Source: Eledone cirrhosa
Lineage: Eukaryota
Length of the DNA: 64,000 bases
Assembly (NCBI GenBank): GCA_964016885.1
Contig: OZ024745.1
Location: 108,562,001-108,626,000, forward strand
Reading direction: 5' to 3'
This document shows, in pieces, positions 19,078 to 64,000 of the stretch. Every line of letters begins with the position of its first letter. The stretch's first letter is position 1. A program made the position numbers and the translations under genes. Below the pieces are notes generated by a model, which searched no databases, had not been told where the DNA came from, and worked only from the letters and a program-made list of their open reading frames with translations.

Positions 19078-19219
19078 TATAAGCAAAAGAGATATTCAAT
19101 TTGTTGGTAATTCAACAAATATAAATGTTTATAACTGATTCAAAGCACTCGACAAGTTTTCTGGTGTATAATATTCAATGATATTAAATAAATGAAAACT
19201 ATATTTATAAAACCATATT

Positions 19220-19280
19220 TATTCTATTATATATATTTCAAGGGTACCAAAACTTTGGTACGCCCTCATCAGATAAAATA
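19220..19280 (-). ncRNA. Type I hammerhead ribozyme (minimal stem III)
   Basis: Reverse complement of the 19413-19473 ribozyme. Confidence 0.7.
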
Positions 19281-19412
19281 CAAAGTTTGTTTTATAAATA
19301 TTGACATAACCAGGAAAGAAGAACTTAATGGTTCAAGTTTATATCCAGGAAAAAACTTGAACTGTTAAGTTCTTCTTTCCTGGTTATGTCAATATTTATA
19401 AAACAAACTTGG

Positions 19413-19473
19413 TATTTTATCTGATGAGGGCGTACCAAAGTTTTGGTACCCTTGAAATATATATAATAGAATA
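19413..19473 (+). ncRNA. Type I hammerhead ribozyme (minimal stem III)
   Basis: Stem I TATTTTAT/ATAGAATA; CTGATGA 19421-27; stem II GGG.GTACCAA/TTGGTAC.CTT; GAAA 19454-57; stem III T-ATAT-A; cleavage triplet ATA (after 19465). Confidence 0.72.
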
Positions 19474-19727
19474 AATATGGTTTTATAAATATAGTTTCCA
19501 TTTATTTAATATCATTGTATATTTATATATATATATATATAATAATAATTGTTTCTACTTTTGGCACAAGGCCAGCAATTACCCAGTGCATTACTGGTAC
19601 TTTATTTTATCGACCCAGTAAGGATGAAAGGCAAAGTTAACCTCGGCAGTGAAGACTAAAATCCAAAGAGGGCTCGATAAGGATAAATATATATCAAGTA
19701 TATAAGAAATTTTAATCTGTTATTTTA

Positions 19728-19857: not shown

Positions 19858-20690
19858 TACGAGGTGTGTCAGAAAAGTTCCAGGACTGATGTCATGAAAG
19901 ATTTATTTCAAACCCAAACTTCACACTAAGAGTTTTCTCCTTCAAAGTAATCCCCCTGGAGTCTAATGCACTTTTCCATCCCTTTCTGCCACGCTTGCAT
20001 GCACTCCTGGAAGGATTCTTCTGGGTTCCTCTGCAGTTCCGTCATCACGGCCTTTTTGATGTCATCCATGTCTTCAAAACGGGTGCCCTCCAGGTCGTAC
20101 TCGAAGATTCATGACACATCACTGGTGAAGACTGTCCCTAGCAAGTCTGGTTCGATTTCAAGATGCTCGAGGATGTCCTGGCACACTTGCATGCGTCGAC
20201 CCTTCTGGTCATCGTTCAGCAGTTTTGGCACCATCTTCACGCAGACTTTCCACATGTCCAAATCTTCAATGAGAATCTTCCAGACGCTGTCCCGATTAAT
20301 GCTCAGCTCATTTGCCATCAGTCGAACAGTCAGCCGACGATCGCTACGCACCATCTGCCTGACGCGCTCAACATTGACCTCAGGGCCTTCCACTCCTGGG
20401 GTCATCTTGCACCACTTAAAAACATGTGAGCGTGACATCGTCTCATCTCCATACACTTGCTGCAGCAATCCCAGTGCTTCTGACGGTGTTTTCAAGTTTG
20501 TTCGTTGCTCTGTGCTCATTGCTTGTTGACCTGAAACAGAGGACATGTATATAAAATTATGAAGAAAAAAGTTTGATCGCTGCAGCGAGCTAAGATTACA
20601 GTTACATACTCCAGGGGGATTACTTTGAAAGAGAAAACGCTTAGTGTGAAGTTTGGGTTTGAAATAAATCTTTTGTGACATCAGTCCTGG
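19858..20690 (-). mobile_element. Internally deleted mariner transposon with ~85-bp inverted ends
   Basis: EQRTNLK..QQVYGDETMSRSHVFKW..DRRLTVR..KVCVKMVPKLL..DQKGRR (mariner N-terminus) and C-terminal MEKCIRLQGDYFEG. The left end is TA|CGAGGTGTGTCAGAAAAG. Confidence 0.9.
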
Positions 20691-21090
20691 ATGTATAACT
20701 CTTCCTCACACTTTCACTCACTCACTGTTTCTCTTCTCTTCATTTCATCCTGTACACCACGAGGGCTATTTTTCTCTCTTCTCACATAGCCATCGCTCGT
20801 GTCGGGTCTGTTCTAAAAGCGCTCATATATTCACCTAGCTTATGCTAAACAGAATAATTTTTGAAGCTTGTTTCTTTCCCCTACGGTTAGCTATACTCTT
20901 TGTTGTTCTCCTGTCTCACTCGCTTTACGCGTTTCAATTGTCCTAATAACTTATTTTGGTTATTATTGCACCGACGTGAGGTATATGATTTTTAATGCAA
21001 TGAAATATCTATGATCGTCGGCAAATCACTGATGAGGGACTCATTTTATTACATGTTATCCATGTGCTACCTGCAGTATTTTTCTCTATA
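20691..21090 (+). mobile_element. Probable Penelope-like terminal fragment with half a hammerhead
   Basis: CTGATGAGGGA...TATCC at ~21030 with the GAAA half missing; ends in (TA)n and truncates the mariner end. Confidence 0.35.
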
Positions 21091-23125: not shown

Positions 23126-24974
23126 CTGATTAATTATCAGTTAAATGATAGAGGATTGGAACAGCTATATTTGAATAAGTGTGGTTTAATTAATAACTAA
23201 TTAAAATGTTGTAGGGCAGAAAATGATAAGTGCAAATAGAATAATAAGAGGATGAAATTCTGAAGAGTTAAGATTGGTCAAATTATCTGTGAAATGAGAC
23301 TCTGGGCAGAGAGGGTGGAATTGTAGTTGAGTGGATAGTTTATCAGTAGAGGAATGGCAAATTTATGAATTATCTTTTCTTTTTATTTGTTGGAATTGGC
23401 AGAAGAGGAGACTGAGGTGCTCCTGACATTTTCTTGCCTTTCACAAGCTGAAGAGATTGATGCTGATGTTCAGCTTAAGAACTTCTATTGGTTGATATCA
23501 ACATAGTTGCTTGACCTGCTAGAAATAACACTTAAATCTTCTTCATTTCATACTCTACCAGTTTAAAGAAGGATAATAATATACTTCTAAATATACTAGC
23601 CTGAAAAAAACAACCAAAAAGAAATGATGATGATAGCTGGAATACCTTTTCATCATATATCTGCAACATAGTTGCTTGAGCTGCTAGAAATAGCACTTAA
23701 ATCTTCTTCATGTCATACTCTACCAGTTAAAAGAAGGAAATGTCACATTGGATAATAATTGTTTCTACTTTAGGCACAAGGCTAGCAATTACCCAGTGCA
23801 TTACTGGTACTTTATTTTATCGACCCCGTAAGGATGAAAGGCAAAGTCAACCTCGGCAGGATTTGAACACATTGGATAATAATGTTCTTCTAGATATACT
23901 AGCCTGGAAAGACAACCAAAAAGAGATGCTGATGATAATGGCTGGAATAATTTTTCACCATAGATCTGCTCAGTCAGGGCTAAGAAAGGGTTAAAGGCAG
24001 TGAATTTAACAGATTCTGTAGAGTCTCAGATAATATGTCCTGTAACATTTATTCCAAGTTACATTTATTCTAAGTTAAGAACCCACTAAGGTCAACTTTA
24101 CCTGGGGCTGATAAATAAAAGGTTTTTACTCCAGCATCCAAACTTCATGGCTAGGGCTTTCAAATTCTTACTCATAAACATACTGTATATTGCTAGATAT
24201 ACAAATACACATACCTACATGTATACAACTATGTCAGAGCAAACACTTTAATTATATATATATGTTAGTTATGGTGTAACTACAGTTACAGGCAGTGCTC
24301 CATTCGAGTTTAGATGTCTCTTTTTACATATAAACTCACATATCTGACCAGATGTTGAAGAAGACTCAGACCCTGTCATTATGATTGTACGCTGAAAGGG
24401 CAGTGGATTGGCAGTAAGGGCGGTAGATTGGCAGTATCGGTAGGGGGGTCGGACGACATGCTTTGACGCATAGAGTTACGGCCCTTGCTATTCTGAGTTC
24501 AAATCCTGCCGAGGTTAACTTTGCCTTTCATCCTTATGGGGTCGATAAAATAAAGTACCAGTAATTGGTATAATTGCTGGCCTTGTGCCAAACGTAGAAA
24601 CAATTATGATTGTACACTGAGTTGATCAATATTAAAACAATTGTAATATGCCAATAAAGTTTGTACATATGCTGTAACACTATCATCATCATCTAACGTC
24701 TATCTTCCACGCTAGCATGGGTTAGACGGGAATTGTCACACTTGAGGCAAGATTGATCGGGTGACCGTGTCTTGCTCATATAGGACTGTTTCTAGCAGGT
24801 TTTCTATGGCTGTGTTTTTTCCATTTGCAGTGTGGCCTTATGGAGATGGTAATGATGGTGAGAGTACAGACAGTCTAGTGGTAGCTATGGTGATGTTAGT
24901 GGTGGTGGAAGTCATCGACTGTAGTGAGAGTGTAGGTAATGGTAGTTATGATGATAATGGTGGTAGTAGTGATA

Positions 24975-26635
24975 GTGGTAGCAGCGGTGGTGGTAGCGAT
25001 GGTGTTAGTGGTGGTGTTAGTGGTGGTGTTAGTGGTGGTGTTAGTGGTGGTGTTAGAGGTGGTGTTAGTGGTGGTATTAGTGGTGGTGTTAGTGATGGTG
25101 TTAGTGGTGGTGGTAGTGGTGGTGGTAGTGGTGGTGGCAGTGGTGGTGTTAGTGGTGGTGTTATTAGTGGTGTTATTAGTGGTGTTAGTGGTGGTGTTAG
25201 TGGTGGTGTTAGCGATGGTGTTAGTGATGGTGTTAGTGGTGGTGATAGTGATGGTGGTAGTGGTGGTGTTAGTGGTGGTGTTAGTGGTGGTGTTAGTGAT
25301 GGTGGTAGCGATGGTGTTAGTGGTGGTGTTAGTGGTGGTATTAGTGGTGGTGTTAGTGATGGTGTTAGTGGTGGTGTTAGTGGTGGTGTTAGTGGTGGTA
25401 GTAGTGGTGGTGTTAGTGGTGGTGTTAGTGGTGGTGTTAGTGGTGGTGTTAGTGGTGGTGTTAGTGGTGGTGTTAGTGGTGGTGTTAATGGTGGTGTTAG
25501 TGGTGGTGTTAGTGGTGGTGTTAGTGATGGTGTTAGTGGTGGTGTTAGTGGTGGTGTTAGTGGTGGTGGTAGTGGTGGTGTTAGTGGTGGTGTTAGCGAT
25601 GGTGTTAGTGATGGTGTTAGTGGTGGTGTTAGTGGTGGTGTTAGTGGTGGTAGTAGTGGTGGTGTTAGTGGTGGTGTTAGTGGTGGTGTTAGTGGTGGTG
25701 TTAGTGGTGGTGTTAGTGGTGGTGTTAGTGGTGGTGTTAATGGTGGTGTTAGTGGTGGTGTTAGTGGTGGTGTTAGTGATGGTGTTAGTGGTGGTGTTAG
25801 TGGTGGTGTTAGTGGTGGTGGTAGTGGTGGTGTTAGTGGTGGTGTTAGTGGTGGTGTTAGTGGTGGTGGTAGTGGTGGTGGTAGTGGTGGTGTTAGTGGT
25901 GGTGTTAGTGGTGGTGGTAGTGGTGGTGTTAGTGGTGGTGTAAATGGTGGTGTTAGTGGTGGTGTTAGTGATGGCGGTAGCGATGGTGTTAGTGGTGGTG
26001 TTAGTGGTGGTGGTAGTGGTGGTGTTAGTGGTGGTGTTAGTGGTGGTGGTAGTGGTGATGTTAGTGATGGTGTTAGTGGTGGTGTTAGTGGTGGTGTTAG
26101 TGGTGGTGGCAGTGGTGGTGTTAGTGGTGGTGTTAGTGGTGGTGTTAGTGGTGGTGGTAGTGGTGGTGGTAGTGGTGGTGTTAGTGGTGGTGTTAGTGGT
26201 GGTGTTAGTGGTGGTGTTAGTGGTGGTGTTAGCGATGGTGTTAGTGGTGGTGTTAGTGGTGGTGTTAGCGATGGTGTTAGTGTGGTGTTAGTGGTGGTGT
26301 TAGTGGTGGTGTTAGTGGTGGTGTTAGTGGTGGTGTTAGTGGTGGTGTTAGTGGTGGTGTTAGTGGTGGTGTAAATGGTGGTGTTAGTGGTGGTGTTAGT
26401 GGTGGTGGTAGTGGTGGTGTTAATGGTGGTGTTAGTGGTGGTGTTAGTGGTGGTGTTAGTGGTGGTGTTAGCGATGGTGTTAGTGGTGGTGTTAGTGGTG
26501 GTGTTAGCGATGGTGTTAGTGTGGTGTTAGTGGTGGTGTTAGTGGTGGTGTTAGTGGTGGTGTTAGTGGTGGTGTTAGTGGTGGTGTTAGTGGTGGTGTT
26601 AGCGATGGTGTTAGTGTGGTGTTAGTGGTGGTGCT
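24975..26635. repeat. 12-bp satellite (GGTGGTGTTAGT)n, ~1.65 kb
   Basis: Tandem array. The Gly/Ser/Val ORFs are frame artefacts and shift frame at GT deletions. Confidence 0.95.
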
Positions 26636-26639
26636 TTTA

Positions 26640-27350
26640 GAAGCTATATTAGTGATCGCATGGGTGGAAGTAGAGTAGTGGTGATGATGATGATGATGGT
26701 GATAGAGCTTATATGAGTAGAGATGGTGGTAGTAATAGTGATGATAGTGATTATGACGGTGTTAGTGATAGTAGTAGTGGTGGTGGTTGTGGTGGTGGTG
26801 GTTGTGGTGGTGGTGGTGGTTGTGTTTGTGGTGGTGGTGGTGGTGCTTTTAGAGGTCATATTAGTGATTGCGTGGGTGGAAGTAGAGTAGTGATGATGTT
26901 GATGATGGTGATAGAGCTTGTGTGAGTAGAGATGATGGTGATTGTGGTGATGGTGGTGGTGGTGGTGGTGACTGTGGTGGAGGTGATTGGGGTGATAATG
27001 ACTGTGGTGGAGGTGATTGGGGTGGTGATGATGGTTGTGTGGTGATGACTGTGGTGGTGATGACGGTAATTGGGGTGATGGTGACTGTGGTGATTGGGGT
27101 GATGGTGATTGGGGTGGTGGTGACTGTGGTGGTGGTGATTGGGGTGGTGATGATGATTATAGTGATGGTGTTGGTGATTGTGTGGTGATGACGGTAATTG
27201 GGGTGGTGGAGATTGGGGTGGAGGTGACTGTGGTGGTGGTAATTGGGGTGGTGGGGATTGGAGTGGAGGTGACTGTGGTGGTGGTAATTGGGGTGGTGGG
27301 GATTGGGATGGTGGGGATTGGGATGGTGGAGATTGGGGTGGTGGCAGTGA
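26640..27350. repeat. GGT-rich low-complexity minisatellite (GGTGATTGGGGT / GACTGTGGT units)
   Basis: Degenerate tandem units. Confidence 0.85.
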
Positions 27351-29394
27351 TATTATGATAGTAATAATAATGGTTGTAGTATTGGCTATATAGTCGGAAT
27401 GTACAGGATGTTGTTAAGGGAAATCCAAAATATCCTTTTGTGTTATCCACTTTCATTTTCAGCTTAGTCAGCACTCTCTGTGGTAGTCTTCTCCAGAAGA
27501 TAGTAGCAGACTCTTTGATCAAAGAAATGTTCAGTTGAATCTTGGTGTGCTGATGCTGAGATTTTTCTCTTACATTTACATTTACTTAAACTACTTGATT
27601 TCGAAGTCAACAAACAGTACAGGTGACTAGGTGTAGGGGGAAAAGGAATATAACTTATAACTTAAGTATTGACCCCCAACTAAGTATAATAGGCAGTATG
27701 TTTGCAATACCACTACACTACTGGACATTTCCTTGTGAAATGCTAGAGAAATTTGCAATAAGTATCAGCTGTTAATAATTGTTTCTACTTTAGGCACTAG
27801 GCCAGCAATTACTCCAGTGCATTACTGGTACTTTATTTTATCGACCCCGTAAGGATGAAAGGCAAAGTTAACCTCGGCGGGATTTGAACTCAGAATGGCA
27901 AGGGCCGTAACTCTATGCATCAAAGCATGGCGTCCGACCCTCTACCGATACTGCCAGTCCAATGTCAGTAGAAAATCAGAGAAATGTGTTTGTATGATTA
28001 TTAAGTACTAATAAAGTACTAATTAAGTATGTAGTCAAATGGTTAAAAAGTTCATCTCATAACTGCAAGGTGTTAAGTTCAATCCCCCTGTATGGGATTT
28101 GGAGCATATATATTTTTTTATAACCTGTGGTCAATTCAGGTTTTGTAGATGAAATTTGATTAGCAGAAACTGTGCAGAAGTCTGAAAGGTAGATTATACC
28201 TGTTATGGTAAGGCCCAGCCTTGTGATGCACTGTTTTTATGCTGACTCAGCTTGAGAATTACATAAAGGGTACACATGTCTTCAGAATACTCACCCATTT
28301 ATATGTGTATTCAATGAGCAGGTAGTACATGCATAAGTGTACATACATATGAGTGTATATACATATAGGTGTACTGTATATACATATAGGTGTACATACA
28401 TATGAATGTACATACATATGGGTGTACATACATACATATGGGTGTACAAACATACTGAGAATTTGTGTAAGCATTGCAAAATACATAACTAGTAAAAATT
28501 TTCTCTGAGAAATCCCATAAAATGTCTATATTAAGTCAGACCTGTGTATTTTTGAAAAGATGCTAGAATAGCTCTCTTGCTAAGCTGTCAACAGAACTTT
28601 GTAGTATTATTTGTGTCCTTTCTTGAATGCAGTCGTGAAAACAAATATGTTTACTTTGAAGGTGCATTTGGATGTGCATATAGTGCATATTTTTATATTA
28701 ATATTACATTTTAAAATAATTATGCATGTTTATATGTACACCATTAGAATTTCTCATTTGTTTATTTGTTTGATGTTTCTTGTTGCTGTTTTATCTTTTC
28801 CTGTTTTTCTCAAAATTGTCTTTTACTCTTCTTCTTTCCCACTCCTTTACAGACAATATTTGATGGCAGCCATAAAAAAAAAAAGGAACAGCAAAATACA
28901 TTCTTGCCATTATCCATAAACAGTGAGTAATATAATAGCAACAAGAACAACAGCAAGAGGAAACTTAAATAAAAGAAAAGGCCCCAACAAAAAAAAAAAA
29001 ACAGAAGAGAATTTAAGCCTGTCCATATGTTCAAAATGTTCATAGGATAATGCTGATATCTGCTCAGTTTTTGAGACTGATGCTATAAAATTGACAGACA
29101 CATTTCTTTCATCTCCCCTGGCATGTGAAAACACCAAAATAACGTCCTATCACAACCACAAGAATAATGATCTTTTAAAGACCAACAAACATACATATTG
29201 TTATATCCAGGTGGTGGGCTGCACAATGAGTAAATAATTATGCACTTCATATATGTGAATATTGTTTGTTATTGTTTGTTTCTTTTCATGTTCTAAGAAG
29301 ACATTCAGTAATGTGTTTTGATCTTATTGCAGGATATTTTTTAGTTCTCTGTAAAACTATCACCAATGGTAATAAAAATAAGTATATATATATA

Positions 29395-29586: not shown

Positions 29587-29881
29587 TTCGTTTCTAAATT
29601 TGTTTAGCAAGATTCTTTATCTGAAAGCGTGTGTTGAAACCGATATTGTCATACTGTGGGAGGGTCATGTTGCCAATAAGAAACACATGCACCAGTTGCT
29701 TTCACTTTAATTTATTATAAATTTCCAGTTGGTTGGTTGGTTCCACAACCGGATGGTTGTTCCTATATTGTCAAAGTTCTTTCGTCACACATCCAACCGG
29801 AAATTTATAATATATTGAAGTGAAAGCAACTGGTGCGTGTGTTTCTTATTGGCAACATGACCTTCCCAAAGTATAACAATA
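29587..29881. mobile_element. Fold-back element (~85-bp arms) preceded by a degenerate hammerhead
   Basis: Arms ~29643-29730 and ~29795-29881. CTGA(--)A-AGC-GTGT-GTT-GAAAC..GTC at 29621-29650. Arm fragments also occur at 2637-2698 and ~1752-1775. Confidence 0.6.
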
Positions 29882-30888
29882 TATATATATCGCTGTATGT
29901 ATAGGGTACCGGTCTACTAATTCGTAGTTTGTGAGTTCATGCTACACCATGTTCATTTTGTTTTTCTCAAGGAAAAGAACAAAAACGATTTACTTTCCTT
30001 CAGTTTACTACATTCTAAAATAGATACCAGGCCCTCTTTGAAAGTTTTAGTGAATGGGTTACATTTGTACAGAGATGCTATCTTGTTAGCTTTACTGAGA
30101 AAAGTAACTGCTTATGTCAAATAGATATTTCTTTTATTTTACCAATCTCAATAGGTGTGACATAAATGGATATTCTATAAGTAATTATGATAATATTTCT
30201 AATTTACATGACTCAATTTTTCAATGAAGATACTGAAAAGACTATTTTAAAAGTATAAAAAAATACACTTTAGCATTTAAACCGGCCGTATCTGGCCAGA
30301 ATTCTCTCACCTCCTTCTGTTCAAACCAGCTGTAACCGGCCACTCATACTGATATTGAGGCATTGTTCTCAAAATAAATAATATCAAAATCTCATAAATT
30401 CGATATTATGTGAGATAATTATGTGAGCCTTTACTGTGAAAATATAGTAGTATAATATATTGTAATGAAAAAGTTAAGGGGTTAACAGGTCAATATGCCA
30501 AAAATATGACTATCAGGTGTCTGATACGATCTCCTATCACCATGACCATTACTACTCAACTGCTGCTCATACAGTCATTAATCAATGCTACTATAACTAA
30601 GAGAATGTGTTAAGTAAAAAGACCTCAAATCACCAATTGTTCTCCTATTGGTCGCTGCACATATATACTTAAGAAACACTAATCTGTCTAAGGTCCTTGT
30701 TAACACTCAGCAAGCTGTAGAGGATCTAATAATTAACTTATTTACTGTGAAAACCATCAATAATAATAATAATCATAATAATGGAATTAATCAATAAATA
30801 AAAAATAAATAAAACAATAATGATATAAATGTAGAATAACAAGTAATAATTTTAGTCAGTGTGTATATATATATATATATATATACAT

Positions 30889-31685
30889 TCTATTATTTCT
30901 TCACAGGTGCTTTTAATCTTATAGCCTGGTTTAATTGTTTTTGTGTGTGGTTGATTATGCTAATTGGGAGAGGAAATTGAGTATATATCTTATCAAATGA
31001 TTCTAAGGACATAATTTATAGTATATTGCTCTGATTATATAATTTATTAATTCATCATTGAGCCACATCGTGAATGGTTGCCAAAAACATATCTATGACT
31101 TTGTCTAGTTTGTGTATATGTAAATCTTTATATTTGATAATCTCCTATAAGGTTGAGATGCAATTAGGCAATATTAGGCTGCACTTTCTAGCAACCAGCC
31201 TACTAGCCGTAAGGCACCAATCACATTCTTTCTGACTTGACCACTGCCACGTTACAGTTCTTAGCCATTTTGAATTCGTTTCTGGCGGGGATCATTTAAG
31301 AAAAATCTTTGTCCAAGTGAGTTTGTTTCCTGATGAGTTTGAAGCTCGAGAATTTATCCTTGATAGGATATTTCCGAAAGCGAACGAAACCCTAAAGGGT
31401 AGAAACGTAATCCTGGTATGTGTATATACATTTTTTCTTCTAACTTTTATTTTATACCTAATTGTGTATGGTTGACGATATATTTAATCGATTTCCACAT
31501 GCTATTGAAATGCTGGGTAAATATTCTATGGCTATTGATCGCGAATAGGTCGTTTATTTATCTATTATTTCTTCACAGGTGCCTTATAGCCTGGTTTAAT
31601 TTTTTTTTTGTGTGGTTGATTATGCTAATTGGGAGAGGAAATTGAGTATATATCTTATCAAATGATTCTAAGGACATAATTTATA
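30889..31685 (+). mobile_element. Hammerhead-containing partial tandem element (Penelope-like pLTR/retrozyme), period ~672 bp
   Basis: Direct repeat 30889-31020 / 31561-31685, internal hammerhead, GT-AG intron-like segment 31416-31578, and (TA)n on both sides. Confidence 0.75.
31325..31406 (+). ncRNA. Type I hammerhead ribozyme with extended stem II
   Basis: Stem I GTTTC/GAAAC; CTGATGA 31330-36; stem II GTTTG/CGAAC extended by TATCCT-TGAT-AGGATA; GAAA 31386-89; stem III CCC-TAAA-GGG; GTA cleavage triplet (after 31401). Confidence 0.9.
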
Positions 31686-31859
31686 TATATATATAACTGT
31701 AAACGTGGTTGGTGTCAGGAAGGGCACCCAGCCGTAGAAAACCCGCCAGACAGTCCTGAGCAAGACAACCAATCTTGCCTCAAGTGGGACAATTCCTGTC
31801 CAGACCCATGCAAGCGTGGAAGATGGACGTTAAACGATGATGATGATGATGATGATGAA

Positions 31860-32237
31860 AGGGTGTTCCCCAAACATGTATACACACTTTAATTACCTGT
31901 GCATGTAATATTTATTAGAATGCACAGCCTTTCCCAAAAATAAAATGACTTAGACATAATTCAATTGTATCTAAACGCCCCAAAATGTTTGTATAATTTA
32001 AATAATTGTTTCTACTTTTGGCACAAGGCCAGCAATTATCCCAGTACATTACTAGTACTTTATTTTATTGACCCCGTAAGGATGTAAGGCAAAGTTAACC
32101 TTGGGGGGATTTGAACTAAAGGGCCGTAACTCTATGCTGCAAATAATGGTGTCCGGCCCTCTACCGATACTGCCAATTTAATTATTTTAATACATCTCTT
32201 AAAGATTTTGTCGTTTGTACATTTTTGGGATACCCTG
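31860..32237. mobile_element. Tc1/mariner-type MITE with a nested SINE B (32003-32178)
   Basis: Imperfect terminal inverted repeats GGGTGTTCCCCAAACATGTA / TACATTTTTGGGATACCCTG|TA. Confidence 0.55.
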
Positions 32238-32559: not shown

Positions 32560-32895
32560 GGAGGCACATGGCTTAGTGGTTAGAGCATTGGCCTTGCAAT
32601 CGAAAGGTTGTGAGTTCAATTCTCAGACCGGGTGATGTGTTGTTTCCTTGAGCAAGACACTTTATTTCACATTGCTCCAGTTTACTCAGCTGTAGAAATG
32701 AGATGATAGGACTGGAGTCCCTATCATTCCACTGCAAAGTGGTCGTGGAGGTGCCACGTAAAAAAAGCACCCAGCACTCACTGTAAAAATGAGGTTGGTG
32801 TTAGGAAGGGCATCCAGCTGTAGAAATCAAGCCAGAATCAGTTCCCGTCCCACCCCTGCAAGCAGGGAAAAAGCAGACGTAAAATGAAATGAAAT
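32560..32895 (+). mobile_element. tRNA-derived CORE-like SINE family A with RTE-derived tail
   Basis: TGGCTTAGTGGTTAG box A and GAGTTCAATTC box B; CCTTGAGCAAGACACTT..CAGTTTACTCAGCTGTAGAAATG resembles the CORE domain; 3' GACGTAAAATG tail. Copies at 45788-46114 (-), 56880-57236, 58993-59385 and 59397-59720. Confidence 0.85.
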
Positions 32896-37450: not shown

Positions 37451-37512
37451 TACATCAAAAAACAAAAAGACTAGTTGAAAATTGTAATTGTTTAAACCCT
37501 TTGCGTCACACG

Positions 37513-38561
<1,049 letters not shown>

Positions 38562-38712
38562 CACATTTCCCGGCGTCGAAGATGCTACTTTTTTCCTAAA
38601 ATAAGTCTAACAAATCTACAATGCGTCCTGGAGGCTGAAGGTTGTTATTTTTTTTTACATTTTTAGTTGTCAAAACGACGCCGATATATATATATAGTAA
38701 TAATAATAAATT

Positions 38713-44290: not shown

Positions 44291-44917
44291 CAGGTCACCA
44301 GTTGGTGCTACTGGTAACATGTATCCCAGTACAACCTGTTTCATGGTCGGGTCGTTGGTGACTAAACTGGCAACCCCACCAAGGTTTCTTGGTGAGGAGG
44401 GTGGCTTTGGACATCCTGCAGAACTAAAAACAAAACCTGTCAAAAGGCAAAGGAGCTCTTAAGAGTCAATAGCCATCCAAAATCACTGGGAGAGATGACA
44501 CCTTAGCCTTTGTCAAGGCAGAATTCTAGGAGAAGGAAAACTCTGATATAACACCTGCAACCCTGATGGTATCCAATGATGTTGACTTGTTCTTCTTTTT
44601 GGTAAATATCATCTTGGTTAAGAGAGTGGGACTGGCTTTGTGCAGTGCCTTTGCTCACTATAAAAGCTTTACGGCACAGGCATTGCTTTATATCTGGAGA
44701 TCTCTCTGCACTTGTCGTCACATGGTACCATGGGCCCAGCACTATGTGTCAATAATTGTCACAAGTGTAGTGTTTGTACCAGAGTTTTCAAGTCGCTGGC
44801 TGGACTAAAAAGTCACACTCGTTCAGCGCATCGGTAGGGGTTCTCCTACTTGGATATAAAGTAGTGGCCGTACTCGAAAACGAGTTGGCAGCCACCATTT
44901 ATATGTATATATATATA

Positions 44918-45228
44918 TCAATGATATTAAATAAATGGAAACTATATTTATAAAACCATATTTATTCTATTATATATATTTCAAGGGTACCAAAACTTTG
45001 GTACGCTCTCATCAGATAAAATACAAAGTTTGTTTTATAAATATTGAGATATCCAGGAATGAGATTGTAACGGTTCAAGTTTTTCTTGGATATATAATAG
45101 AATAAATATGGTTTTATAAATATAGTTTCCATTTATTAATATCATTGATATTATACTCCAGAAAACCTGTCGAGTGCTTCGAATCAGTTATATTTGTTGA
45201 ATTACCAACAAATTAAATATCCCTTTAT
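44918..45228. mobile_element. Asymmetric fold-back element of the 19.1-19.5 kb family
   Basis: The left arm contains a full hammerhead. The right arm starts near the cleavage site and runs through the bulged hairpin. Flanked by (TA)n. Confidence 0.75.
44963..45023 (-). ncRNA. Type I hammerhead ribozyme (minimal stem III)
   Basis: TATTTTAT-CTGATGA-GAG.GTACCAA/TTGGTAC.CTT-GAAA-TATATA-TA-ATAGAATA. Confidence 0.75.
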
Positions 45229-45789: not shown

Positions 45790-46114
45790 TCATTTCATTT
45801 TACGTCCGCTTTTCCCTGCTTGCAAGGGTGGGACGGGAACTGATTCTGGCTTGATTTCTACAGCTGGATGCCCTTCCTAACACCAACCTCATTTACAGTA
45901 AGTGCTGGGTGCTTTTTTGCCGTGGCACCTCCACGACCACTTTGCAGTGGAATGATAGGGACCCCAGTCCCTATCATCTCATTTCTACAGCTGAGTAAAC
46001 TGGAGCAATGTGAAATAAAGTGTCTTGCTCAAGGAAACAACACATCACCCGGTCTGAGAATTGAACTCACAACCTTTCGATTGCAAGCCCAATGCTCTAA
46101 CCACTAAGCCATGT
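45788..46114 (-). mobile_element. SINE family A
   Basis: Reverse complement of the 32560-32895 consensus. Confidence 0.85.
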
Positions 46115-59977: not shown

Positions 59978-60164
59978 CACACACACACACATATATATAT
60001 ATAGACATATATAGACATATATAGATATGGTGAAACAATTCCATAGACATACAGACAAACAGCCCACTCTATGTTAAGTCTCAAGTGAAATATAACTTAA
60101 GACTCATAATTGGGATCTCTTGATAATCTATCCTCCCACCACAACTTCCACCCTCCTGCCTCCT

Positions 60165-61415
60165 GTGGTGAGGGTGATGTTGGTGAGTATGGTGGTGGTG
60201 GTGGTGGTGGTGGTGGTGGTGATGGTGGGGGAAATGGTGTAGCTGGTGGTGAGGGTAATGGTGAGGGTGGTGTTGGTGTTGTTGTTGTTGGTGGTGGTGG
60301 TGATAGTGATGACGTGGTGGTGGTGGTGCTAGTGTTGTTGGTGGTGATATAGGTGAGGATGGTGGTGGTGGGGGTAATGGTGGTGAGGGTGGTGTTGGTG
60401 TTGTTGTTGGTGGTGATAGTGATGACGGTGGTGGTGGTGGTGCTAGTGTTGTTGGTGGTGATATAGGTGAGGATGGTGGTGGTGGGGGTAATGGTGGTGA
60501 GGGTGGTGTTGGTGTTGTTGTTGGTGGTGATAGTGATGTGGGTGTTGGTGGTGTTAGTGTTGTTGGTGGTGGTGATGGTGGTGGTGATGGTGGTGGTGGT
60601 GGTAGTGGTGGTGGTGGTGGTATAGGTGAGGATGGTGGTAGTGATGAGGGTGGTGGTGGTGGTGGTATAGGTGAGGATGGTGGTAGTGATGAGGGTGGTG
60701 GTGGTGGTGGTATAGGTGAGGATGGTGGTAGTAATGAGGGTGGTGGTAGTGGTGGTGGTATAGGTGAGGATGGTGGTAGTGATGAGGGTGGTGGTGGTGG
60801 TAGTGGTGGTGGTGGTGGTATAGGTGAGGATGGTGGTAGTGATGAGGGTGGTGGTGGTGGTGGTATAGGTGAGGATGGTGGTAGTGATGAGGGTGGTGGT
60901 GGTGGTAGTGGTGGTGGTGGTGGTATAGGTGAGGATGGTGGTAGTGATGAGGGTGGTGGTGGTGGTGGTATAGGTGAGGATGGTGGTAGTAATGAGGGTG
61001 GTGGTAGTGGTGGTGGTATAGGTGAGGATGGTGGTAGTAATGAGGGTGGTGGTAGTGGTGGTGGTGGTGGTATAGGTGAGGATGGTGGTAGTGATGAGGG
61101 TGGAGGTGGTGGTGGTGGTGGTATAGGTGAGGATGGTGGCAGTGATGAGGGTGGTGGTGGTGGTGTTGGTATAGGTGAGGATGGTGGCAGTGATGAGGGT
61201 GGTGGTGGTGGTGGTGGTGAGAGTGTTGGCTGTGGTTATGTTGTTGATGCTGGTGGCAGTGGTGAGGATGTTGCTGGTGGTATAGGTGGTGGTGTTAGTG
61301 GTATGGCTGCTGTTGTAGTTGATGGTAGTAGTATAGGAGTGTAGGAGTGTGAGTTTGTTGTGGCAATGGTGTGGGTATTAGTGGTGGTAGTAGAGACGGT
61401 GCTGGTGGTTGGGTA
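60165..61415. repeat. GGT-rich minisatellite (GGTATAGGTGAGGATGGTGGTAGTGATGAG(GGT)n)
   Basis: Tandem degenerate units. Confidence 0.9.
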
Positions 61416-61417
61416 AT

Positions 61418-61419
<2 letters not shown>

Positions 61420-61462
<43 letters not shown>

Positions 61463-62352
61463 TCTGTGTGTGTCAGAGTGTGTGGGTGAGTGTGTGTGTG
61501 AGTGTGTGTGTGTGAGAATGTGTGTGAGAGTGTGTGCGTGAGTGTGTGTGTGTGAGAATGTGTGTGTGTGAGTGTATGTGTGTGTGTGAGTGTGTGTGTG
61601 TGAGTGTGTGTGTGTGAGTGTGTGTTTGTGAGTGTGTGTTTGAGTGTGTGTGTGTGAGAGTGTGTGTGAGTGTGTGTGAGAGCGTGTGTGTGAGAGTGTG
61701 TGTGTGTGAGAGTGTGTGTGAGTGTGTGTGAGAGCGTGTGTGTGAGAGCGTGTGTGTGAGAGTGTGTGTGTGAGACTGTATATGAGAGTGTGTGTGTGTG
61801 AGAGTGTGTGTGAGAGTGTGTGTGTGTGTGAGTGTGTGTGTGTGTGAGAGTGTGTGTGAGAGTGTGTGTGAGTGTGTGTATGAGTGAGTGTGTGAGAGCG
61901 TGTGTGAGTGTGTGTGTGAGTGTATGTGTGAGTGTGTGTGTGAGAGCATGTGTGAGAGTGTGTGAGTGAGTGTGAGAGTGTGTGTGAGAGTGAGTGTGTG
62001 TGTGAGAGTGTGTGAGAGAGTGTGTGTGTGTGTGTGAGTGTATTTGTGAGAGCGTGTGTGAGTGTGTGTGAGTGTGTGTGAAAGTGTGTGTGTGAGAGTG
62101 TGTGTGAGTGTGTGTGAGAGTGTGTGTGTGTGAGTGTGTGTGTGAGTGTGTGTTTGAGAGTGTGTGTGTGTGTGAGAGAGTGTGTGAGTGTGTGTGTGTG
62201 TGAGAGTGTGTGTGAGAGTGTGTGTGTGAGTGTGTGAGTGTGTGTGTGTGAGTGTGTGTTTGAGTGTGTGTGTGTGAGAGAGTGTGTGTGAGTGTGTGTG
62301 AGAGTGTGTGTGTGTGAGTGTGTGTGTGAGTGTGTGTGTGAGAGTGTGTGTG
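61420..62352. repeat. Degenerate (TG)n/(GA) microsatellite
   Basis: Directly visible. Confidence 0.95.
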
Positions 62353-62509
62353 ATGCATTCATTTTCCAAGTGGGAAAACAGAGTAAAAACAACAAAACCA
62401 AAACAAAGCCAGCCTTTGGTGTTTTATCTGGAGAGCAACAACTTCAGAAAGACTATGAATCCAGGGAGAGTCAATGTCCTGCTCTTGGGAGAGACCAAAT
62501 AGAACATAA

Positions 62510-63900
62510 GTACCATCACTACTACTACTACTAACACCACTGCTACTATCACTAACAACAACAACACCATCACTACTACTACTACTACCACTGCCACCAA
62601 CTCCACCACCACCACCGCTGCTACAACTACTACTACTAACAACAACAACAACACCACTGCTACTAACACTAACAACAACAACAACACCACTGCTACTATC
62701 ACTAACAACAACAACAACAACACCACTGCTACTAACACTAACAACAACAACACCACTGCTACTATCACTAACAACAACAACAACAACACCACTGCTACTA
62801 TCACTAACAACAACAACAACAACACCACTGCTACTAACACTAACAACAACAACAACACCACTGCTACTAACAACAACAACAACAACAACAACTACTACTA
62901 CCACTGCCACCAACAACACCACCACCACCGCCGCCACTGCTACAACTACTACTACTAACAACAACATGGTGGCGGTGGTGGTAGTAGTAGTAGTGTTGTT
63001 CTTAGTAGTAGTAGTGGTGGTGTTAGTGGTAGTAGCAGTTGGTGGTGGTGGTGTTGGTGGTAGTAGTGTTGTTCTTAGTAGTAGTAGTGGTGGTGTTAGT
63101 GGTAGTAGCAGTTGGTGGTGGTGGTGGTGTTGGTGGTAGCAGTATTATTCTTGTAATAATAACACTACCACCACTACTTCGTTTAGCATTTCCACAATTA
63201 ATAATAATACTACCACCACTACTATTACCCTACTACTTTTAACATTACCATAGTTAATAATAATAATAATAATAATAATGATAATAATAATACCACTACT
63301 ACTCTTACCACTACTACTTTTAACACTACCACAGTTAGTAACAATACTACCACCACTACTGCTTTTAACACTACCACAATTGGTAATAATAATACTACCA
63401 CCACCATTACCACCACACCACCACTACTACCACCACCATCACCAACCACTACCATCACCACAACCACCACCACCACTACCACCACCACCACCACCACCAC
63501 TACCACCATCACCATCACTACCACTACTACCATCACCACTACCAACACCACCACTACCACCACCACAACCATCACCATTACCACCACCATCACCATCACC
63601 ACTACCACCACCATCACCTCAACCACCACAACCACTACTATCATCACCACTACCACCATCACCACTACCACCACCACCACCACCACCATCATCACCACCA
63701 CCACCATCACCAGTACCACCACCACCACTACCACCATCACCACTACCACCATCACCACAACCACCACAACCACTACCACCATCACCACAACCACCACCAC
63801 CACTACCACCATCACCACTACCACCATCACCACAACCATCACCACTACAACCACCATCACCATCACCACTACCACCACAACCACCACCACCACCACCACT
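62510..63900. repeat. ACT/AAC/ACC triplet low-complexity arrays
   Basis: Directly visible. Confidence 0.9.
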
Positions 63901-64000
63901 ATTATAATTTTTTTATGGGGTGGAGGAGAGAATTATACTATTTTTTTGTTATTTTAGTTGTACATGTTCTTGATCATGTTGTTCAAGATTACTTCACTGT

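Follow-up and report, generated by a model that had tools for sequence, protein, structure and literature searches.

A hammerhead-bearing partial tandem in Eledone cirrhosa, probably a non-autonomous Penelope-derived element

A 64,000-nt stretch of Eledone cirrhosa DNA (GCA_964016885.1, contig OZ024745.1, positions 108,562,001 to 108,626,000 of the forward strand; hereafter the window) contains a short element that carries a terminal direct repeat and a hammerhead ribozyme motif, is flanked by TA runs, and belongs to a multicopy family with a shared end. The element is probably a 5′-truncated copy of a non-autonomous Penelope-like derivative, of the non-LTR retrozyme kind, that was copied in trans by the reverse transcriptase-endonuclease of a Penelope-like element (PLE), with a pseudo-LTR at 31310-31691 and a residual body at 31027-31309. 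From its features we infer the enzyme, its template, and the cleavage, splicing, and folding into a rod that its RNA would undergo in vivo.

The element is laid out on the plus strand as a partial tandem. A (TA)11 target microsatellite at 30864-30885, where reads of the family stop, is followed by a left partial unit (segment A, 30889-31026), which starts 18 nt ahead of the AG in a 3′ splice-like site and is presumably an upstream pseudo-LTR truncated at its 5′ side. Segment A aligns within the window to the right terminal repeat (segment A′, 31561-31690) with 92.8% identity over 138 columns (E 3e-54), and a (TA)7 target microsatellite at 31682-31695 overlaps the 3′ end of the element. Across their initial 22 bp the repeats lie 672 bp apart, and thereafter 665 bp, as a 7-bp segment at 30911-30917 is missing from the right repeat. 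The unit length is 672 bp, and the window copy holds 1.2 units with one ribozyme. An earlier sequence-only reading had described a partial tandem of about 1.2 units between (TA)n flanks, which the alignment confirms; its account of the repeats as differing by small indels was right but incomplete, since two substitutions (30937, 30943) occur besides the 7-bp segment and a 1-bp gap (31021). Any target-site duplication is unreadable within (TA)n, and the 64-kb window holds no second copy of the element.

Between the repeats lies the body, segment B (31027-31309), which is predicted to form its own folding domain and has a CCAAT at 31217. The candidacy of a TATA-like box at 31294 was given up because a subfamily differs there. 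The element has a GC content of 34% and no coding signal, as had been claimed: stops interrupt all six frames, and its two frames of at least 70 aa have no Pfam match. A short interspersed repeat (31700-31860) directly abuts the right TA run.

The hammerhead motif occupies 31325-31406 on the plus strand. Stem I pairs 31325-31329 with 31402-31406 and leads into the core CTGATGA (31330-31336), stem II pairs 31337-31341 with 31381-31385 and extends into a 49-nt arm, and GAAA at 31386-31389 joins a 4-bp stem III (31389-31392/31397-31400) with a 4-nt loop. The motif predicts cleavage at a GUA site, after 31401 (31401/31402). The type I features are present (CUGANGA core, GAAA, NUH, and three helices with helix I open), and the hammerhead descriptor matched none of 3000 dinucleotide shuffles of the element; what had been called one textbook hammerhead is indeed a complete motif, for which self-cleavage is predicted. 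The MFE fold of 31310-31420 is the hammerhead (z −2.35, 2 of 200 shuffles as stable), and in longer sequence contexts, where other folds compete, the pairing probability of stems I and II drops to 0.05-0.35 in one set of predictions and 0.2-0.5 in another. Rfam gave no hammerhead match at the gathering threshold or at E ≤ 10, probably owing to the extended stem II, which would defeat its models. The motif had no match in metagenome and viral contigs, nor was its 12-nt form found in the paper supplements searched, a set that included PMC4209133 except for one file.

Further copies were sought by aligning four of the eleven listed public runs (X1, X4, X5, X9) to 30521-31720 at 85% likeness; X2, X3, X10, and X11 were set aside, as were X6-X8 with their small word shares. 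The material consists of contigs and 150-nt reads, none of which spans a whole unit. In X1, 3737 contigs matched the element at 85-100% identity, and the summed depth, which is not a copy number, was 13,066-169,312 per element bin versus 7 in the left flank. A second organism (X4) supplied 54 contigs of the family, so that at least two organisms carry the element. The alignments show a highly repeated family that is bounded by the 672-bp unit.

Among the 24 of 425 loose-end records listed, which were read outside 30749-30895 (the left boundary), one 3′ end of the family is preferred and lies ~290 nt downstream of the predicted cleavage. Ends at 31026, the left-copy counterpart of the 3′ end of segment A′, form the largest group listed in X1 (25 of 449 partial contigs) and recur in X4 (2 contigs of 12) and X9 (150 reads), that is, in three of the four runs. 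Beyond 31026 come (TA)n and then unlike flanks, and the window copy ends likewise. The circularly permuted endpoints anticipated by the sequence-only reading were not borne out among these 24 of 425 records, in which the largest group of X1 ends lies at 31026 and runs into (TA)n; scattered permuted ends may occur among the others. Pile-ups of X9 reads at 30933/30936, 31273/31276, 31354, and 31460 were considered as molecule ends and rejected: all lie on AATT sites, and the run is a reduced-representation library. Because the pile-ups are restriction artefacts, X9 depth was not used for copy number.

Segment A continues into the body in other copies, as seen at 31039 in 77 contigs, almost every one of which has an allele absent from the window copy, and in an X4 record covering 30981-31084. 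This join fits more-than-unit copies, and also short tails or permuted monomers. Its recurrence beyond this locus agrees with the sequence-only reading, as does the lack of any coding partner seen attached to the unit; no well-supported case of a shared branch into an open reading frame occurs among the loose ends listed. A joint from 31582 back to 30910 that resembled a circle junction proved to be the state of the repeat usual in the family, in which the 7-bp segment is present.

Variation among the copies is structured. At least one subfamily differs at about 31087-31163, with joints from 31086 to 31171/31177 and loose ends at 31164; body subfamilies also differ at 31271-31300, and a 6-nt insertion variant follows 31548. 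At 30904/31576 and 30980/31645, both repeats of the window copy carry C and A, respectively, alleles that are uncommon in the family. Positions 31176 and 31201 co-vary in X1 (0.39/0.39) and X9 (0.44/0.49), not in X4 or X5, a weak signal from unphased data. Within the ribozyme, almost no core variants are listed in DNA-type runs, a C at 31340 in other copies makes stem II wholly Watson-Crick, and the stem III loop varies in length (31394). In X5, one contig that accounts for 180 of 233 of the depth over the ribozyme is changed at core position A14 (31388), a change that is absent in X1 and present in 2 of 148 X9 reads. Two further X5 contigs, of a run whose type is not on record, match both sides of the ribozyme and not the inside (31308-31461).

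Downstream of the ribozyme is an intron-like GT...AG segment of 163 nt (31416-31578, plus strand) that is kept in genomic copies. Its splice-like sites are CTG|GTATGT (31416) and a pyrimidine-rich CAG|G (31578), and the commonest variant at 31576 preserves YAG. Shuffling yielded a comparable pair 13 times in 3000, under a descriptor that was composed once the sequence had been seen. No spliced joint is present among the 15 of 21 joints listed. The likeness of the left flank to the start of the intron, GTG(TA)nCAT, was discarded as a common pattern: among 91 TA runs, 9 have CAT at their end and 11 are preceded by GTG.

The intron-like segment is predicted to pair with the terminal repeat as a long rod, a feature that is new here. 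The 5′ arm of the rod (31414-31517) pairs with 31561-31660, with probabilities of 0.92-1.0 for the core helices and 0.6 for the helix at the 5′ splice site. A predicted clamp pairs 31310-31323 with 31664-31676 (pair probability 0.95-1.0) and encloses the ribozyme; if formed, it would keep the RNA joined across the ribozyme cut. Deleting the intron-like segment removes the 5′ arm, with a small difference in z (−0.66 vs −1.72). The 5′ end of the window copy (30889/31561) coincides with the junction of the predicted rod and its terminal hairpin (31518-31560), which may be a candidate pause site for reverse transcription.

The fold of the window copy is weakly unusual (z −1.6 as a circle, z −2.0 for the linear domain), and alleles from other copies strengthen it. 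Inserting 16 alleles that are in the majority in both X1 and X9 changed the fold energy by −19.1 kcal/mol, versus +7.1 ± 5.6 kcal/mol for same-type changes at random sites, none of 120 of which matched the drop. Folded as a circle, the majority-allele unit reaches z −4.9 (0 of 60 shuffles). For the linear domain, 11 alleles gave −14.6 kcal/mol, which was matched by 0 of 200 controls, or by 1 of 200 when the controls were restricted to unpaired bases. These majority alleles, which are unphased, were drawn from 40 variant rows listed out of 216, and some were transferred between the repeats by alignment; the one at 30943 disrupts a pair. The same alleles stabilise the opposite strand too, by −12.7 kcal/mol. 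The rod depends on G.U pairs, at −154 kcal/mol for the plus strand versus −112 kcal/mol for the minus strand. On the ribozyme strand, A/G variable sites exceed T/C sites, 37 vs 23 in X1 (p 0.02), with p 0.002-0.01 in the other runs, the runs not being independent. Such a bias would be expected if pairing that tolerates G.U is under selection or if A-to-I editing takes place, and either would act at an RNA stage.

Sequence homology to any PLE was not found, and a scan of the 92 of 183 complex frames that reach at least 70 aa revealed no reverse transcriptase or GIY-YIG domain, so the link to PLEs, with no autonomous partner seen, is drawn from anatomy. The available parts of PMC8557442 describe PLEs as occurring in partial tandems whose upstream copy is truncated; their pLTR contains a 5′UTR intron, introns are retained, and (TA)n is a frequent target. 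In Anolis Poseidon, reverse transcription starts internally, 85-92 nt past the ribozyme cut site, the enzyme cuts AT-rich DNA, and genomic ends coincide with the start sites; ribozyme cleavage is dispensable there, and no RNA reads end at the cut site (PMC11167929, as far as its text was available). A preferred 3′ end past the ribozyme is what such internal initiation predicts, unlike permuted ends. Across the clades described in the accessible text of PMC8557442, PMC11167929, and PMC4209133 (Penelope/Poseidon, Neptune, and Hydra, with the non-autonomous MRC1), the element is alike in its partial tandem, (TA)n target, and ribozyme upstream of a preferred 3′ end, and it has a putative counterpart of their retained 5′UTR-type intron. 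PLEs have an open reading frame for reverse transcriptase and GIY-YIG, whereas the element has neither, and the minimal palindromic hammerhead described for them contrasts with the stable 4-bp stem III and 49-nt stem II arm found here. Canonical PLEs have a ribozyme in both repeats; two-ribozyme copies of the element are predicted, and none was observed among contigs and reads shorter than a unit, a point against the PLE reading. Recently active Penelope families are described in one octopus genome, in the available part of PMC13282606.

The copying of the element may be pictured as follows. A donor holding at least one unit and a pseudo-LTR (clamp, ribozyme, intron-like segment, and segment A) would be transcribed, and its RNA, unspliced, would adopt the predicted rod. 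A borrowed enzyme would nick (TA)n and begin the cDNA at a fixed internal point directly past the rod, from which it would copy the RNA toward its 5′ side, crossing first the intron, then the ribozyme (left uncleaved or held by the clamp), and next the body, before entering the upstream repeat. The window copy would have halted 138 nt into that repeat, leaving 1.2 units and one ribozyme; with one ribozyme it cannot itself release a monomer. A full copy would span about 1.55 units and, having a ribozyme in each repeat, could set free a monomer of 672 nt. A further proposal, which is rather doubtful, is that the intron serves as a copying signal: its 5′ half would pair with the exon before the reverse-transcription start, only unspliced RNA would make the rod for the Penelope enzyme, and the clamp would hold the RNA across the cut, giving either a 672-nt circle or read-through.

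The sequence-only reading had proposed a candidate retrozyme. That stands insofar as the repeated unit, which resembles a retroelement and is non-coding, has a hammerhead and no coding partner was seen attached to it. It falls short in that the listed ends do not show the expected permutation and this copy has one ribozyme, so that ribozyme-to-ribozyme monomers, including the putative spliced form of ~510 nt, would need longer copies. Retrozyme and Penelope pLTR are not mutually exclusive, since animal retrozymes, 51-972 bp long, are derived from pLTRs in the available text of a recent preprint (bioRxiv 10.64898/2026.07.22.740005). Like the non-LTR animal retrozymes described there and in the accessible part of PMC7229834, the element is non-coding, low in GC, and self-paired, with a type I hammerhead, a repeated unit inside their size range, and a likely PLE origin. 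As defined in those portions, however, they have at least two ribozyme-bearing units and, where tested, circular RNA, and the window copy, whose 1.2 units include a single ribozyme, does not qualify as an active retrozyme under the two-ribozyme definition of the preprint. The circles blotted in that literature are 170-400 nt long, shorter than the 672-nt unit, and the available text of neither source describes an intron-like segment or a shared 3′ end. The preprint, as far as available, treats non-LTR retrozymes and non-autonomous PLEs as one, and by analogy the element would work like both. Plant LTR retrozymes, in the descriptions available, are alike in being non-coding with ~700 nt between ribozymes, but they have type III ribozymes in both LTRs, where the element has a single type I motif and none in its repeats, and they have a PBS, a PPT, 4-bp duplications, and a GC content above 55%.

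The main competitor to the linear template of the favored reading is a circular one, which we regard as possible but distinctly the less likely: a 672-nt RNA cut from a longer copy by two ribozymes, ligated, and copied for 1.2 turns from a fixed start by the same PLE enzyme. This is the idea of the sequence-only reading without its permuted ends. The two accounts need the same enzyme and differ in the template alone. The fixed start is compatible with either. A cDNA begun 290 nt past the cut must traverse the cut site, which a ligated circle permits, and the strong circular fold of the majority-allele unit suits a circle, yet no predicted helix requires closure, and stems I and II face competing folds in context. 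The family-rare alleles common to both repeats are expected if one template was read twice and follow equally from a tandem donor. In the literature, as far as the sources were available, circles are abundant from coral, mussel, and axolotl retrozymes (PMC7229834), and a 2014 paper suggested that PLE tandems have circular templates (PMC4209133); against this, cleavage is dispensable in Anolis Poseidon, the one PLE tested (PMC11167929), and eight of nine Xenopus dimers failed to cleave in vitro (bioRxiv 2026.07.22.740005). The window copy, moreover, has one ribozyme, and the multimers from which a circle would be cut are hypothetical.

Two other accounts are far less probable. That the unit is a terminal fragment or decayed piece of a coding PLE with its open reading frame elsewhere, rather than a mobile short unit, is very unlikely: a few single contigs do exit the unit into other sequence at 31423, 31461, and 31505, and most PLE insertions are 5′-truncated (bioRxiv 2026.07.22.740005, in its available part), but other copies join A to B and the intron to A, which closes the unit without an open reading frame, the listed loose ends with good support trace to indel variants, restriction sites, or TA flanks rather than to a shared coding branch, and no coding remnant was detected in the element. 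A DNA-level element, either a Helitron-like rolling circle or a fold-back MITE with a captured hammerhead, in which the rod would be a DNA hairpin, is about as improbable. Helitrons likewise produce partial tandems, and the window copy starts with TC and has long internal complementarity. It shows, however, no terminal inverted repeat and no CTRR end, and the G.U dependence of the rod, the strand-biased variation that points to an RNA stage, and the nearly variant-free ribozyme core all weigh against an origin in DNA.

The surrounding window is rich in microsatellites and tRNA-derived SINEs, and its repeats presumably resemble those of octopus. A second, unrelated hammerhead family occurs at 19086-19523 and 44905-45226, with motifs at 19272 (minus strand), 19421 (plus), and 45015 (minus) and a stem III region that is palindromic and TA-rich; each locus consists of an inverted pair between (TA)n, with an extension of roughly 85 bp on one arm only. 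This inverted, TA-flanked layout is the one described for Penelope-like insertions, in the source text available, and was counted for the PLE reading. Short interspersed repeats with tRNA-like heads are present in several copies (46054-46111, minus strand; 32560-32620; 31700-31860), one of which is a tRNA in Rfam (31 bits). Between TA runs at 29643-29882 lies a 93-bp inverted repeat whose arms are 91% complementary and separated by 54 bp; it may represent a MITE or a further inverted piece of a PLE. Frames at 19951-20705 have no Pfam match and read like a decayed mariner-type transposase. Very long simple-sequence arrays, GCGT/GT and GGT/GTG-rich with a strong GC skew, occupy 37490-38600, 24900-27400, and 60100-64000.

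Hammerhead-bearing, non-coding Penelope derivatives have already been described in many animals, and as a member of that group the element is ordinary. In the literature searched, neither this family nor a comparable rod is described, and repeat libraries or some supplements may hold the family. The value of the element is as a compact test case for more-than-unit copying by PLEs, for the role of the ribozyme, and for intron retention, the significance of which is called unknown in the available text of PMC8557442. With a 672-nt non-coding unit and many diverged copies, circular versus linear and spliced versus unspliced templates can be tested directly. If the proposed role of the intron is true, the rod would give a structural reason for both the retention of Penelope introns and the making of more-than-unit copies.
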